DNA of 64,000 nucleotides from Escherichia coli (GTDB taxonomy: Bacteria; Pseudomonadota; Gammaproteobacteria; Enterobacterales; Enterobacteriaceae), in the NCBI RefSeq assembly GCF_048403405.1, contig NZ_CP183129.1; one strand, written 5' to 3'. Position numbers and translations under genes: made by a program. The notes below the pieces were generated by a model, which saw only the letters and a program-made list of their open reading frames with translations, was not told the DNA's origin and did not search any database. Below, piece after piece: positions 42,142 to 49,573 of this stretch. Each line of letters starts with the position of its first letter. Position 1 is the stretch's first letter.

Positions 42142-42912
42142 GTGTCTGGTTTGAAGATTACGCTTTTACAGCAACCACTGGTGTGGATGGATGGTCCTGC
42201 CAACCTGCGTCATTTTGATCGTCAACTGGAAGGTATTACCGGACGCGATGTGATCGTTCTACCGGAGATGTTTACCAGCGGCTTTGCCATGGAAGCGGCA
42301 GCTTCGTCGCTAGCACAAGATGACGTAGTGAACTGGATGACAGCCAAAGTGCAGCAGTGCAATGCGCTGATTGCAGGCAGTGTTGCATTACAAACGGAGT
42401 CTGGTTCGGTTAACCGCTTTTTGCTGGTTGAGCCGGGCGGCACGGTACATTTTTATGATAAGCGTCATCTGTTCCGCATGGCAGATGAGCATCTACATTA
42501 TAAAGCGGGCAATGCGCGAGTGATTGTGGAATGGCGCGGCTGGCGTATTTTGCCGCTGGTGTGCTACGACTTACGTTTTCCTGTGTGGTCGCGCAATCTC
42601 AACGATTATGACCTCGCCCTATACGTCGCCAACTGGCCTGCTCCGCGCTCTCTGCACTGGCAGGCATTGCTGACGGCCCGCGCGATTGAGAATCAGGCGT
42701 ATGTGGCGGGATGCAATCGCGTCGGCAGCGATGGCAACGGCTGCCATTATCGCGGTGACAGCCGGGTGATTAATCCACAGGGCGAGATTATCGCTACTGC
42801 CGACGCGCATCAGGCAACGCGCATTGATGCGGAGCTGTCGATGGTGGCGTTGCGGGAATATAGAGAAAAGTTTCCGGCATGGCGGGATGCGGATGAGTTT
42901 AGGTTGTGGTGA
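42142..42912 (+). CDS. yafV: Nitrilase-superfamily omega-amidase YafV
   Basis: GTG start giving VSGLKITLLQQPLVWMDGPANLRHF...; catalytic Cys region LPLVCYDLRFP. Confidence 0.88.
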   Translation: MSGLKITLLQQPLVWMDGPANLRHFDRQLEGITGRDVIVLPEMFTSGFAMEAAASSLAQDDVVNWMTAKVQQCNALIAGSVALQTESGSVNRFLLVEPGGTVHFYDKRHLFRMADEHLHYKAGNARVIVEWRGWRILPLVCYDLRFPVWSRNLNDYDLALYVANWPAPRSLHWQALLTARAIENQAYVAGCNRVGSDGNGCHYRGDSRVINPQGEIIATADAHQATRIDAELSMVALREYREKFPAWRDADEFRLW

Positions 42913-42950
42913 GTGGGTGTTGTGTTTAGGGGCGGGGTAAGACTACGGGT

Positions 42951-42973
42951 CAGGGCAAGATTACGAAAGCCCG
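42951..42973 (+). repeat. 23-bp direct repeat, copy 1 (cagggcaagattacgaaagcccg)
   Basis: Matches 43327-43349 with one mismatch. Confidence 0.6.
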
Positions 42974-42974
42974 G

Positions 42975-43326
42975 AGCCTGTCCATCATTCTGTGTAAATG
43001 CCTTTCTCAGAAGTGACCGTCAAGGCGGTCACCGAACTCGATAATAAAGCGACTCATCCCTATCCGCCAGTCCTGAAGTGGCATCGTCCATTTTTGCGAC
43101 GCTGACTGGAAAGCCAGCCACACCACTTTTTTCACCGACTCATCTGTCGGGAACACTTTCCGTTTCTTTATCGCATGTGTGATGATGCTATTCAGCGATT
43201 CGATTGCGTTAGTGGTGTAGATAACCTTGCGGATCGCCTCCGGGTACACGAAGAATGTGGCAACATTCGGCCAGTTTGCCCGCCAGCTGCGACTTATCTG
43301 CGGGTACCGTGCATCCCATTCCTTCC
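42975..43326 (-). mobile_element. IS256-family transposase gene fragment (3' end only)
   Basis: Minus-strand translation ...YPEAIRKVIYTTNAIESLNSIITHAIKKRKVFPTDESVKKVVWLAFQSASQKWTMPLQDWRIGMSRFIIEFGDRL, a typical IS256-family C-terminus. Confidence 0.6.
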
Positions 43327-43349
43327 CAGGGAAAGATTACGAAAGCCCG
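43327..43349 (+). repeat. 23-bp direct repeat, copy 2 (cagggaaagattacgaaagcccg)
   Basis: Overlaps the 3' end of the ISAs1 transposase gene. Confidence 0.6.
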
Positions 43350-44458
43350 CTCCCCGCAAGGACTGACGCCAGATAGTTTCTGTCCATGGCTGCTTTTCGC
43401 ATCTTACGTCTTAACCCTGCCTTGAATACCTTATCATTCGTCAAAATATTAATAGCGATGTGCCGTATCCCTGAAAATAATTCTGCTGCGTTTCCTCTTC
43501 TTATTTTGCAGTCGTCTTCATTCATTACCACGTCCAGACGCCAGTGCAGCTTATTCTCCACGTGCCAGTGGTTTCGGATTGCTGTGGCGAACTTCTCTGC
43601 GGTTAAATCAGCAGAACTAATATAATATCTGACCGTCATTTCTGGCTCTTTCTTTTGTTCTGCTATTATTGACCGAAAGGAGACTGCCACGCATAATTTC
43701 TTCAGACCTTTCCATTCAAACGTGAAATCAATAAGTTCATCAGGGACATCGCAAACAATGTGAAGACGGATTTCTTCTCTGCCGTGACTCTTTTCACTCA
43801 TTGCGTAACTGTCATGCTCTGGATTATTTAATTCTTTCAGCGGAAATTTTTCCTCGAAGGCTTTATTTAGCCGCCCCTGGTTTCCTTTTACAGCGAATAA
43901 ATAATCACCTCCCTGTTTTTGTATCTTCTCTGCAATATCTTTCTGGCAACCCATCGCATCAGTTGTGATGATTTTTCCTTTAATATCCAGCATGTTAAGA
44001 AGTTCTGGGATAGCTGTAATTTCATTGGATTTCTCATCCGTCCTGATCTGTCCGATGACCAGACTGTGCATTGTTGAGAACGCACTAATGACATGAATCG
44101 CTCCCTTGCGGCGACTCTTGTCATAAGAATGCCGGAGTGTTTTTCCATCAATTGCGATGACGTCTTTATCATCTGAAGTATGGCAATCTCGCATCCAGTT
44201 AATAAAGCACTCGTGAAATTTTGCAGGACTGATACAGGATACAACTCTGGCGATGGTATCGTGAACAGGAATACCATTTTCAAAATCACCGTATTGTTTT
44301 AAAAAATCGAGATGTGTTTCCCCAAAATCCTCTATATCTTCCCAACCTTCCGCACCCGAAATAACGGCACAAATAGTCAACAGTAGAATATCCGATAATT
44401 TATGTTCCACTTTCCAGGCTTGTCTGTAATCGGGGATAATAGAAATATGCCCCATCAA
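43337..44458 (-). CDS. ISAs1-family transposase (Rhs-associated H-repeat protein)
   Basis: 373-aa [49 protein letters not shown]..., DDE-type; positioned downstream of the Rhs element. Confidence 0.85.
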
Positions 44459-44693
44459 TTTTTTAAGTTCTATTTTGTTCTCCTTAATTATGTAAGGAGT
44501 ATTTGATCATGTATAAGCAATAAAAAACAGCTTTAGGTAATGAGGAATATCTCAATTTTTAAACATAAAATGCGAATTATTTAGTACAAAAAAGCAGCGT
44601 TACGTGATCTTTCCCTGCACTTCACCCTAACTTTAATTTAACTTCAAGAAGTATTAAGGCCTCAATAGCGAACTTAATACTTCTTAAAGAATA

Positions 44694-45071
44694 TCACTCC
44701 TGACCAAAATCTTTCCACACTAATGCATGAGACTTTGATTTATCACCCAAAAATTTACTTACATCTTTCCAAAGTAAAGAATTGCTATCGGTCGCAGTGA
44801 CTATTGCCTCTATAAGCCCTGTAGCTACAACTGTGGCCAATTCATCATCAATCGAGACCATACCATCTTCGACATGTTTAAATATTTTTTCTCTTTCAAT
44901 ATCACCCATTTCATAAAAATTTTTTACAATCGTTTTTCCAATCTGAGAGAACAACATAACCACCGGTGGAGTTTCTGGATGCCAGTATTCATTAGCTAAT
45001 GAGACTGTCTCAGACAAAACAGTGGAAAACGATGCCATTTTTTCTATATAATTAGCAATATATTGGTTCAT
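44694..45071 (-). CDS. Putative Rhs toxin immunity protein (125 aa)
   Basis: Start codon overlaps the Rhs stop (TAATG on the minus strand); small cytoplasmic protein; AT-rich by eye like the toxin tip. Confidence 0.6.
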   Translation of the reverse strand: MNQYIANYIEKMASFSTVLSETVSLANEYWHPETPPVVMLFSQIGKTIVKNFYEMGDIEREKIFKHVEDGMVSIDDELATVVATGLIEAIVTATDSNSLLWKDVSKFLGDKSKSHALVWKDFGQE

Positions 45072-45802
45072 TACTTGCCTCCCAAAGCATTCTGTAAATC
45101 CTGAAGAACGTTTTCTGCTGCTGCTCGATCCCCTGGAGATGCTGTTGGATTCTTATCCAACCAATCCTGTAAAGCCCTTGTATAATCCTGTGCTTTCAAT
45201 ACATGTCCTCTACCACCAACTTTTTCACCTGTGGCCAATTCATAACGAACAGCATCTGCTGTGCTTCCACTTCCTACTTTTGCATTTGGCCGATAAAGAT
45301 CGTCTATAATATTTTTCAAATTTGAATCTGTAACGTCAGGTTTTCCCATCTTCTGTCGCAATTCATCTTTATACCGTTCATGCTGCATACGATCTCTTGC
45401 GCTATTCTCATCTTCTGGTCCCCATCCTCCCGGGCTTCCCGTACTGCCACCACCCAGGCAGTTCTTCTCTTCCTCCGTCAAATCCTTCCCGACATTTGGA
45501 TTCTCTTTTGATGAATCATCATTTCCAAACACGCTGGAAAAAGCACCATAGGGATCTCGCCAGAATTCCATTTGACTTTGTGCATTTAATAATTCGGCTT
45601 CACCCTGCATCTCCATACTTTTCTCAATCGCGTCCCCAACAGCCTCGCGATTGTTGTATATTATTATACCACCACCAATAACCACCGTACCGACTGCCGC
45701 ACCGACTAACATCCCCGGAGGGCCTCCTACCGAACCGATCTCTGTACCTACTTCAGAACCAGTTCCCATGGCAGTTAATGCTCCTGCGCCCAACGCCGCA
45801 CT
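45071..45802 (-). other. Rhs variable C-terminal toxin tip (about 243 aa after the DPLGL motif), family not assigned
   Basis: Begins with a Gly-rich hydrophobic stretch ([23 protein letters not shown]), then a charged domain (...[52 protein letters not shown]...). Confidence 0.55.
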
Positions 45803-48800
45803 TAATCCCAGCGGATCCAGCCGTTGCACCGGGTTCAGTGGATACGCATACAGGTTCCATCCCCCCTTCAGCCCAATCGGATCCTGGGTGATATACCTCC
45901 CCTGTAGCGGGTCATAGTACCGGTGACGGTTGTAGTACAGCCCCGACTCCTCATCATACTGCTGCCCCGGCAGACGGAGTGACTGTTGAAGGTGCTGCGC
46001 GCTGGTTTCGCCCAGCAGGTTTCCCCACTCGTCATACTCCCCGCGCCACGCCGTTTCCCCTTCCGGGCTGATAAGCGCCTGCGGCAGCCCACGGTGGTCA
46101 CAGTGGTAAAGATGAAGTTTCCTCTCCGGGATGTATTCCGCCTCCAGTTGCGCCGCCATCTGTTCCGCCGTCAACCCACACTGTGCAAGCCACTGCTGGC
46201 TTTCTTCACTCACGCTGCCCTGCCGCAGTTCCCGCTCCAGCCTCCCCAGCATCACCGCCAGCTCCGCCGGTAGCGTCACACCCGTGTCCTCCTGCAACAC
46301 CTCCGCCAGGCTACGGTGCCGCGCCTTCGCCTGTTCGCCATTCTCTGTTTCGATTCTCAGGAGCGGCGTGAAGCTCCCCGGCTGGTATACCGTCTGGATA
46401 CGCGTGGTGTCGGTCTGTACCGTCGTCAGCCTGTCGCCGTCCCACCCGTACCAGGTCACCTCCGGTTTACGCGACAGCGACATCCACCCCGTCAGGTCAC
46501 GCTCCCGCCGCCACACCCGTTTTCCCGTCCGGCGGCCCAGCGGGTCATAGAGGTAGCGGCTCTCCACCTGTGGCTCGCCGTGCTGTATCCGCGTGTAGAA
46601 CACCAGGCGGTGCTGGCTGTCGTAATGGTAGTGGTGCGTCCGCTCGTCGTGCATCCGTATCACCCCTTCCGGGATACGGTCCGTCTTCTCCGCCAGCCTG
46701 CCGTATTCATCGTAGCGGTAGACATAGTGCGCATCTTCCGTGATGCGGTTATCCGGCCACGCCGTGAAGGTGCTGTCCGGGTGCAGTTCCGGGTCCGGCA
46801 GCCGGTTTCCTGCCGGGTCCGTCGCATACGGGATATCAATGTCCAGGTTCGCTGCCGTGGTGTGGACGCCCGTCAGCCTTCCCGTGTCGCTGTAACGGTA
46901 CTCCCGGCTCTCCTGCGGGCCGCTGATGCGAATTAGCTGTCCGTTGTCGTTCCAGTCGTAGTCACGGTCAAGCTGCGGAAGGTTCAGGTGCCTGCTCCGG
47001 AGCTGGCCGCTGGTATTCCAGGCGGTGGCAAGCTCATATGCCTCCCCGCCGAAGCTGCGGGCCGTCTCACGGTGCAGCCGGTCCCGCGTGTACTCGACCA
47101 GTGGCGTACCACCCAGCTTCATTCCCGCAAGATAACCGCTGCCATACGTCAGCCACTCCACCGGCGGCAGACCGTCCGGCTCCTGACGGGTCGCCAGCCC
47201 CTGTTCGCTGTACGCGTGCTTCATCTCATGCTCCCACAGCATCTCCCCCGTCTCCGGGTTCTCCACCGTCTGCCGTTCGCCGGTCAGGCGGCCTTTATCG
47301 TCGTGGCCGTAGTGGACCGCCACACGGTGGCCTTCGCTGATATGGCTGATTTCTGTCAGCCAGCCGTGCTCATCATACTGCCACTGCTCCGCCGGGTCGC
47401 CGTTCACCGTCCGGTGCGTGATGCGGTCCGACGCATCGTAATGCCAGAGGGTGATAAGTCCCTCGTCTTCACTGTGGACAAGCTGCCCTGTGGCGCTGTA
47501 CCGGTAACGCTGCGTCCTGCCGTCAAAGCCGCGCTGCTCCGTCAGCCTGTCCACCGGGTCATACCGGAACGTGGACTGGCTGCCGTTCTCGTTGGTCAGC
47601 ACGGTGATGCGCCCGGCAGCGTCATACCCCATGCTGCGCGTCAGACCGCCTTCCGTCACACTCACCGGACGCCCGCGTTTATCATATTCGATGGTGCTGC
47701 GTTTACCGTCCGGTGATATCGTTGCTGTCAGGTCGCCTGCGGCGCTGTACTCATAACGGGTTTCACGCCCCTGCGCATCCTTCTGACTGACCAGTTGGCC
47801 TCGCGGGTTATAACTGCTGTAAGTGCTGATGCCTTCCTCCCGGTGAACGGCGATTTGTTGACCGTACCGGTCATACTCATACCGCGTCATGTACCCCGAG
47901 CAGTCCGTGAAGGCCCGAAGCTGACCGTACCGGTTTCGCGTTATTCTCCGCGTCACCCCGATTCCGTCTTCCACCGCGCCGGGCAGGCTACTGCGGGGGG
48001 AGTCATAAAACCAGCGCGTAATGTTACCGTTGCGCGAGATCTCTTCTGCCAGTCGGCCCTGACGGTCATATTTCCGGCTGCTGCGTAAACCATCCGGATA
48101 TGTCACTGAAGTCAGTTGCAACTGGCTGTTGTAACCATACCGTACCGTCCTGCCGTCCGGCAGTATCACTGAAGTCAGCTTTCCAGACGCCATATGCAGC
48201 CGGTACTCCGTCCGCCGTCCTGCCGCATCCGTCTGCGCCTTCAGCCTCCCCGCCTCATCATACTCGCTGCGGGTGATGCTCCCGTCGGCATGCTCCTTCT
48301 TCACCACACGCTTCAGGCCACCCCCGCCTTCCGTGTACAGCACCTCCCGCCGGTTCAGGCTGTCCGTGATGGTCACACGGTCCTGCCCGTACTCAAAGCG
48401 GTAGTCCAGCCCCTCCGGGTTGACCTGCTCCGTCACCCGCCCGGTATCATCATACCGGTAGCGGCTCTCCGGCCTCCCTGCATAATGGTGCGCCACCATC
48501 CGCCCGGCGTGCTCCGCATCATAAGTAAACCCGCGCACCTGCGTCCCGCTGCGGTCATACACCGCCCGCAGTTCTCCGCTGGCCGTGTACGTATAGCGCG
48601 CCAGCGGCGCAGTCGGCTGTTCATCCGGGTATGCCGGGTCGTGTGTCAGCCACACCGCCTCCAGCCGGATACCGTTATCGGCACCGTATTCTGTACCGGC
48701 GGGCAGCGTATCGGGGAAAACCTGAGAAGAGGAAACAGAACGGGGACCGGCTGGAGAAGATAAAGAAGAGGCGCGCTGTTTACGGAAGGCTTCCGCCCGC

Positions 48801-49573
48801 TGCGCCTGCGTGCTCAGCGCCAGGTGAAAACAGCGGCCCGCGCCGTCCGTCACCCCCGTCACCGCACCCGCCACGTCACCCTCTGCCGCCCGGTGGAAGG
48901 CCAGCGTCCGCCCGAAGCCGTCCACCACGCCCGTCAGCACCCGGTATGCGGGCGGCTCCGGCGGCAGCACCTCGTCCGCCCCCGGCACCCGCTCCGGCCA
49001 GCCGAGCACCAGCCACTGCCCGGTTGTGCTGGCAGCCATCATATAGATGTGTGGACTCAGACGGACCGCTTCCGGCAACGCCCGCCAGAGCCGCGCAAGC
49101 GGGTGGCCTTTGTGCTGCTGTTTCAGCACCCCGCACCGCGCCAGCCAGAACGACTCGCTGCGGCTGTAGCTTATCTCGCCGGGAAACAGGGGTTCAAAGT
49201 GAATGCTCCTGCCGCCGCTGTCGTTGAGTATCAGGCCTTCATCGCGTATCTGTAAGCGGATATCGAAGGGGGCTTTCCAGCCGGGACCAAACACCCCCAC
49301 CGGCGCGGGCGTCCTGGTCCGGTAGCTGCTGTAGGCGCGGAAAAGAACAAACGGCAGCGGGCCGGACAGTGCCAGGTCGGTTTCAGCAGGCAGCACCTTC
49401 GCTCCCAGCAGCGGGTTTACCGGATTGCCATATTTCGGCGTGGCTTCCCCTGTGGGACACACCGAGCAGGCCACACCGGTTGGCGCACCTATCAGCACCC
49501 CTGCTGAACCCTGCACAATATCCAGTCCCTTGCGGGTCATGTCACCCTGCCGCGCCGCCGGTTTTCCACCCAT
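45071..49573 (-). CDS. rhs: PAAR-domain Rhs-family T6SS effector (RhsA-like core with variable C-terminal toxin)
   Basis: 1500 aa; N-terminal PAAR-like [13 protein letters not shown]...[18 protein letters not shown]; YD repeats; core end ...[42 protein letters not shown]. Confidence 0.9.

Follow-up and report, generated by a model that had tools for sequence, protein, structure and literature searches.

An orphaned H-repeat end and an IS256-family fragment beside yafV at the edge of an Escherichia coli T6SS/Rhs island

The H-repeats are elements of the ISAs1 family that have long been known at Rhs loci and are entered in ISfinder as ISEc1 and ISEc5. Orphan ends of insertion sequences (IS) left by nested insertion, and deletions caused by homologous recombination between IS copies, are textbook outcomes. 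In K-12 a defective H-repeat, yafF, lies near yafV, and we take it to be the 'H-rpt min.5' of Zhao et al. 1993. According to a passage of PMC3032704, H-repeats have ISfinder entries though their transposition has not been observed. IS1414 belongs to the IS256 family and is described as carrying the astA/EAST1 gene (McVeigh et al. 2000, as cited in a passage of PMC12585946).

The locus described here lies in a window of 64 kb, by which we mean the whole 64,000-nucleotide stretch of DNA that was analysed, and is a feature of a known kind whose parts had already been annotated piecewise: ordinary IS debris at the edge of a secretion-system island. An earlier note, made from the sequence alone, had called the region the boundary between the core gene yafV and a T6SS/Rhs island. 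The gene order agrees with this, since fadE-ivy-yafV is followed by the IS debris, a small gene, Rhs, VgrG, Hcp and a full T6SS gene set, and the island could be traced to ykfM-yafT-tRNA-Asp-dnaQ. The features of the boundary are as follows.

42142 to 42912, plus strand: yafV (2-oxoglutaramate amidase), the last core gene before the island, from the open reading frame and the RefSeq annotation of the identical locus L001
42933 to 42947, plus strand: partial inverted-repeat-like sequence of 15 nt, CGGGGTAAGACTACG, read from the sequence and compared with L002, L005, L006 and L007
42951 to 42973, plus strand: repeat copy 1, the orphaned outer 23 nt of an ISAs1-family (H-repeat) IRR, the transposase-3' end; C6 variant
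42974 to 43326, minus strand: IS256-family terminal fragment of 353 bp, from the C-terminus of Pfam Transposase_mut and the matches of relatives, which start at 42974
43007 to 43318, minus strand: IS256-family transposase pseudogene remnant within the 353-bp fragment
43327 to 44617, minus strand: intact 1291-bp ISEc1 (ISAs1 family, H-repeat), from its inverted-repeat pair, Pfam and RefSeq annotation; its parts are the IRR (43327-43351, holding copy 2), the transposase gene (43337-44473) and the IRL (44593-44617)
44618 to 44693, no strand: right-hand H-repeat junction, CCCTG followed by CACTTCACCCTAAC..., and spacer to the Rhs-associated small gene, the same in L005
44694 to 45071, minus strand: gene for 125 amino acids in the position of an Rhs immunity gene, a role suggested by position only
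45071 to 49573, minus strand: Rhs core gene, followed by VgrG, Hcp and the T6SS core genes

The repeat pair and the elements around it

The two direct repeats of 23 nt, CAGGGCAAGATTACGAAAGCCCG at 42951-42973 and CAGGGAAAGATTACGAAAGCCCG at 43327-43349, were found exactly where the earlier note had placed them and are equal at 22 of 23 bases. Their sole difference is at position 6, which is C in copy 1 and A in copy 2. With up to three mismatches allowed, the whole 64-kb window contains these two copies only, and 100 dinucleotide-preserving shuffles yielded 0 matches. Copy 2 is the IRR, or transposase-3' terminal inverted repeat, of the intact ISEc1, with its inverted partner at 44593-44617, and, as had been noticed before, it reaches into the ISAs1 transposase gene at the 3' end, the stop codon lying at 43337-43339. 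Copy 1 matches the IRR of ydcC/ISEc5, of ybfD and of one ISEc1 in L007 at 23 of 23 positions. Their difference at position 6 shows that they came from separate H-repeat copies.

When aligned, copy 1 falls in register with the uninterrupted H-repeat that adjoins yafV in L005 and L006, where the IS256 fragment is absent, and the alignment with the resident H-repeat ends includes the GT immediately outside. The earlier note had suggested that copy 1 could be the stump of a second H-repeat copy. It is indeed a stump; as to its source, the register alignment makes the original resident H-repeat more likely than an extra copy, and this register would make the left end of the present ISEc1 the newcomer. 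Three nucleotides upstream of copy 1 lies CGGGGTAAGACTACG (42933-42947), which is identical to the start of a degenerate resident H-repeat end in other lineages; at this spot the other lineages carry the shorter CCGGGGAGAG. The 15-nt piece is possibly the trace of an earlier nested H-repeat event.

The DNA between the repeats (42974-43326) had been described as a 352-bp fragment of the 3' end of an IS256-family transposase gene. The spacer measures 353 bp, and its identity is supported by the minus-strand translation, which matches the last 78 profile positions of Pfam Transposase_mut (PF00872, E=2e-18), and by RefSeq, which annotates a partial transposase that lacks its N-terminus. About the last quarter of the gene is present in the window. 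Full-length IS256-family relatives are 1313-1315 bp long, with inverted ends GAGCCTGT...ACAGGCTC and 8-bp target duplications (L003, L016, L017, L022). Their matches to the spacer start precisely at 42974, immediately next to copy 1, and open with the terminus GAGCCTGTCCATCATTCTGTGTAAAT; copy 1 was thus severed by the IS256-family element's own terminus, GAGCCTGT..., from 42974. The fragment keeps this one terminus, identical to that of the full-length 1313-bp relatives, and is cut off at element nt 353 by the end of ISEc1, the other end and the target duplication being deleted. The fragment is 96% identical to copies in L002, L004 and L010, and 68 of its 353 positions mismatch IS1414.

In strain TUM1886 (L018, 575-1889), which has the window-type arrangement, a full IS1414 has since inserted into the IS256-like fragment at a distance of 68 nt from the fragment terminus, in the same orientation and with a clean duplication, GAACTCGA. 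Strain CT02 (L008, 3001-4260) carries a near-complete copy of the window's IS256-like group adjoining a heat-resistance locus (hsp20, clpK), truncated by an ISEc52 element.

The element at 43327-44617 has the length of about 1.2-1.3 kb, the short terminal inverted repeats and the single DDE transposase of the ISAs1 family. Its ends, CAGGGAAAGATTACG and CAGGGAAAGATCACG, are inverted and identical at 14 of the first 15 positions and at 11 of the first 11. The transposase contains the domains PF13808 DDE_Tnp_1_assoc (E=2e-33) and PF01609 DDE_Tnp_1 (E=9e-31), and the RefSeq name at the identical locus L001 is 'ISAs1-like element ISEc1 family transposase' (WP_024192499.1). At the DNA level the element is 96-97% identical to other H-repeat copies. 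The open reading frame is intact except at its annotated start (44471-44473, minus strand), where ATA stands in place of the ATG of other copies; an in-frame TTG-ATG lies 15 nt downstream. No target duplication surrounds ISEc1, the flanks ...CATTCCTTCC on the left and CACTTCACCC... on the right being different. To the left of ISEc1 lies the interior of the IS256-type gene, to its right ancestral sequence. The two flanks thus stem from different events, and the missing duplication leaves the ISAs1 family membership of ISEc1 unaffected.

The search for functional signals gave no Rfam match in the region at E<=1, promoter and terminator scans of the region that were no better than shuffles, and nothing unusual in the fold of the H-repeat end DNA (z=-0.5). 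A 17-nt hairpin is present at 44642-44689, in the spacer to the right of ISEc1.

In most E. coli an H-repeat lies directly beside yafV, with Rhs-associated genes beyond it where these are present, and the 3' end of yafV is conserved up to window position 42937 in 5404 of the 5426 genomes, with divergence after that point. EC571 (L005) has an uninterrupted, decayed H-repeat between yafV and the window's right flank (CCCTG followed by CACTTCACCC), which continues with the same small gene and then an Rhs fragment. In K-12-type genomes the truncated H-repeat (yafF) starts at the same place after yafV. These two cases, together with the register of copy 1, indicate that the ancestral arrangement has an H-repeat next to yafV. 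On its right ISEc1 thus retains the ancestral H-repeat junction, while copy 1 occupies the ancestral position of the left end, and the H-repeat beside yafV, a fragment in K-12, marks the old boundary of the aspV-yafV T6SS/Rhs island. In K-12-type genomes (L006, 4154-4800) the H-repeat breaks off at nt 291 and is joined there to a partial hypothetical gene that lies immediately ahead of ykfM. This fusion is the footprint left when the entire Rhs/T6SS island from yafV to aspV was lost.

The whole arrangement is present in 278 of 5426 complete E. coli genomes (about 5%) and in an independent metagenome contig, L012. Among the 28 contigs read, the 378-aa transposase allele was found only at the yafV locus and always with a gap of 425 bp to yafV. 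The single locus, the fixed gap and the 278 genomes mark it as an old, vertically inherited scar. What appears in annotations as an oddity at the yafV edge, a partial transposase next to an ISEc1, is thus a fixed scar that marks a lineage.

Origin of the arrangement

The structure was probably produced by a nested insertion followed by recombination between two H-repeat copies, and we regard it with good confidence as a scar and not as a functional unit. An IS256-family relative of IS1414 would have inserted 23 nt inside the transposase-3' end of the resident H-repeat, stranding the outer 23 nt of the inverted repeat beside yafV as copy 1. The product would have had the order 23-nt stump, full IS256-like element, AAAGCCCG, and H-repeat from nt 24 onward. 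The transposase gene of this IS256-family element would then have been hit by a second ISEc1, at element position 353/354 and in the orientation of the resident. Homologous recombination between this newcomer and the body of the resident H-repeat would finally have deleted all that lay between, leaving one complete ISEc1, with the IS256 remnant against its left end (copy 2) and the ancestral junction preserved at its right. We infer the order of events and the recombination step from observations given above and below, namely the identities of the pieces, their breakpoints, the absent duplications, the ancestral right junction and a mosaic within ISEc1. The earlier note had offered recombination between the repeats as an alternative to a stump; on the account favoured here it would be needed alongside the stump.

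A second H-repeat copy is required because a simple IS256-like insertion at nt 23 would leave a body from nt 16 that is unable to restore a complete end. The reciprocal junction, in which the IRL of ISEc1 is followed by IS256-like nt 354 onward, occurred in 0 of 5426 genomes, as expected if that segment was deleted. The sequence of ISEc1 was also compared with canonical ISEc1 (L007) and with the K-12-type yafV-resident H-repeat (L017). Sites of ISEc1 type and of resident type number 10 to 2 in nt 1-566, 1 to 16 in nt 673-974 and, in a mixed stretch, 4 to 3 in nt 1019-1253 (Fisher p=6e-4 for a breakpoint picked post hoc among three compared sequences). No mosaic is visible in comparison with the resident copy of EC571, from which the mismatches are spread evenly along the window element. 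A left part that is ISEc1-like and a middle that is resident-like, together with the two variants at position 6, fit recombination between a newcomer and a resident.

Several observations weigh against this account. Gene conversion among H-repeat copies, with no deletion, could give the same mosaic. The intermediate that it calls for, in which an uninterrupted IS256-like element comes after the 23-nt stump, was seen in 0 complete genomes. The piece at 42933-42947 and the GGT before copy 1 hint at an earlier nested event, which would make copy 1 a second-generation end. Deletions associated with IS256-like elements at yafV (L002, L010, L014) could also have shaped the locus differently. These three have a sister architecture, in which a 40-nt stump adjoins an IS256-like element, full or truncated, with Rhs-associated DNA beyond it. 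No matching target duplication of the IS256-like element was found in them, which shows that deletions next to the IS256-like element also occur at the yafV site.

One metagenome contig (L011, QZMA01006407.1, 1-1400) does join the 23-nt stump to a full-length IS256-like element, which is then followed by a DUF5339 locus. Window-type strains (L009, L013) have a second IS256-like fragment at the DUF5339 locus, cut by an IS4-family element, and it overlaps the yafV fragment by 106 bp. Given this overlap, the contig is probably a chimeric assembly and was rejected as a genuine intermediate.

In another explanation, which we consider unlikely, two or three H-repeats once stood head to tail beside yafV; copy 1 would be the stump of an outer extra copy, ISEc1 the original resident, and the distal part of the IS256-like element would have been lost by transposase-mediated adjacent deletion from the IRR. 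In its favour, such deletions typically leave one-sided junctions without target duplications, H-repeats pile up at other places, L007 among them, ISEc1 has the ancestral junction on its right, and a further partial inverted-repeat-like piece is present at 42933-42947. The tandem explanation agrees poorly with the register of copy 1, its GT flank and the yafV spacer, which match a single resident end (L005, L006, L002), and with the mosaic, in which the left part of ISEc1 is not resident-like. Nor was a tandem intermediate seen at the yafV locus in the genomes read.

It is far less probable that copy 1 serves as a functional alternative end, so that the segment from copy 1 to the IRL (42951-44617, 1667 bp) moves as an enlarged H-repeat together with the IS256 fragment. 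The stump does keep all positions common to the IRR and the IRL (11 of the first 11, 14 of the first 15), and apart from the ATG-to-ATA start the ISEc1 reading frame is intact. The junction of the stump with IS256, like the transposase allele, was seen at the yafV locus only in the rows and contigs read; among these, 42951-44617 did not recur as a unit at more than one genomic site, the mark of a composite transposon. The view cited in the passage of PMC3032704 mentioned above, that H-repeats have not been observed to transpose, also speaks against such movement.

The idea that the 23-nt repeat is a target-site duplication, or some other product of one standard transposition, has almost nothing to recommend it beyond the fact that direct repeats bracket transposase-derived DNA. 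The repeat is the terminal inverted repeat of ISEc1, with a partner at 44593-44617, the target duplications measured for the IS256 group are 8 bp, the bracketed DNA is truncated and has one IS end only, and the single base that separates the copies puts them with different H-repeat variants. The target-site reading is ruled out because the repeat is IS-end sequence and not host target, and duplication by standard transposition, which the earlier note had named as what would refute its reading, was therefore not what was found. Chance similarity, ruled out by the 0 matches in 100 shuffles, and misassembly, ruled out by the 278 complete genomes with the identical arrangement and by metagenome contig L012, are scarcely credible.

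Insertions of IS1414-group elements in H-repeat ends

Seven independent insertions of IS1414 or IS256-like elements were observed at H-repeat nt 23-83, counted from the outer base of the IRR (window 43349-43410), at yafV and ydcC, two loci unrelated to each other. They are listed by H-repeat position, with the source, element, locus, target duplication and orientation.

nt 23, this window: IS256-like, yafV, no target duplication left, same orientation
nt 31, L003: IS1414, ydcC, CTCCCCGT, same orientation
nt 40, L002, L010 and L014: IS256-like, yafV, no target duplication left, same orientation
nt 52, L016: IS1414, ydcC, AGGTAGTT, same orientation
nt 64, L017: IS1414, yafV, TCCATGGC, same orientation
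nt 64, L020: IS1414, yafV, TCCATGGC, opposite orientation
nt 83, L021: IS1414, yafV, TCTTACGT, opposite orientation

An orientation bias of IS1414 in H-repeat ends was considered and rejected, both orientations being represented. A candidate insertion at about nt 96 (H258) was likewise rejected, because its actual place is the yddH-pptA interval and not the H-repeat. An upstream match of 11 nt on plasmid pN51a is attributed to chance, the element there lying inside nudI with a clean duplication.

Insertions over the rest of the H-repeat were sought with chimeric junction queries, in which either end of IS1414 was joined to H-repeat nt 16-114, 650-748 or 1193-1291. Together these queries span insertions anywhere in the H-repeat in both orientations and are less sensitive to the older IS256-like group. 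With these IS1414-based queries, no insertion at H-repeat nt ~104-1291 was found in 5426 genomes in either orientation. H-repeat nt 54-61, CTGTCCAT, are the same as nt 5-12 of the IS256-like terminus, and this match is a possible insertion cue. The roughly 80 nt inside the transposase-3' end of the H-repeat may be a preferred landing site of the IS1414 group of IS256-family elements, a proposal on which we find ourselves evenly divided. If it is true, the stump in the window would be one case of a recurrent process and not an accident. Confirmation would mean that IS1414, the carrier of the astA enterotoxin gene, has a target preference, and such a hot spot would help to explain why H-repeat ends are so often degraded.

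Three further IS1414 sites (L019, L031, L032, L033) lie in the yddH-pptA interval, 0.5-0.7 kb outside the end of the ydcC H-repeat (the RhsE H-repeat), with duplications CAAAAATA, TTACATGC and TTGCATCA. As these sites are outside the H-repeat, the clustering may be regional and not confined to the H-repeat terminus.

A collection scan for the junction of an H-repeat end with an IS256 end returned three metagenome contigs, all from the yafV locus. None was seen among 100,044 species-representative genomes, and so none outside E. coli in that set; together these results indicate that the association is not a broad one. The searchable library contained no paper on the target choice of IS1414 or on the junction in the window.

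Comparison with described elements

The closest counterpart at the same site is the H-repeat beside yafV in K-12, which shares with the window element the family, the 1291-bp length, the end sequences and the position. Association with Rhs is likewise common to the window element and to the known H-repeats as a passage of PMC3032704 describes them. The two loci differ in that the window has an intact element and retains the Rhs/T6SS island; K-12 lacks the island, and its H-repeat stops at nt 291. The window also has, in contrast to K-12, an extra orphan end and an IS256-type fragment between the H-repeat and yafV.

The same two IS families also abut in the ybfQ-ybfL/ybfD region downstream of RhsC in strain 21F61 (L004); strain W5-6 (H293) has ybfQ annotated at the corresponding junction. 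There, as in the window, the fragment belongs to the same IS256-like group (14 mismatches in 353 bp), has the same terminus and is cut by an ISAs1-family end, and the reciprocal junction is absent. Unlike the window, strain 21F61 has a fragment of about 505 bp, an ISAs1 element in the opposite orientation whose IRL abuts it, and no outer ISAs1 stump. Fragments of this group cut near element nt 505-511 were observed at both the RhsC/ybfD locus (L004, 2501-3004) and the yafV locus (L002, 2501-3010), the cut being made by an ISAs1 IRL in one and by a truncated Rhs gene in the other.

IS1414 and the group of the window fragment have in common the IS256 family, the terminal motif GAGCCTGT...ACAGGCTC and the 8-bp target duplication. 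The fragment nevertheless falls in a separate group of 96% identity that is 81% identical to IS1414, and it ends at nt 353, before the region equivalent to astA (nt 412-528). Compared with solo IS ends and IS-IS deletions in general, only the particular pair of elements is different here.
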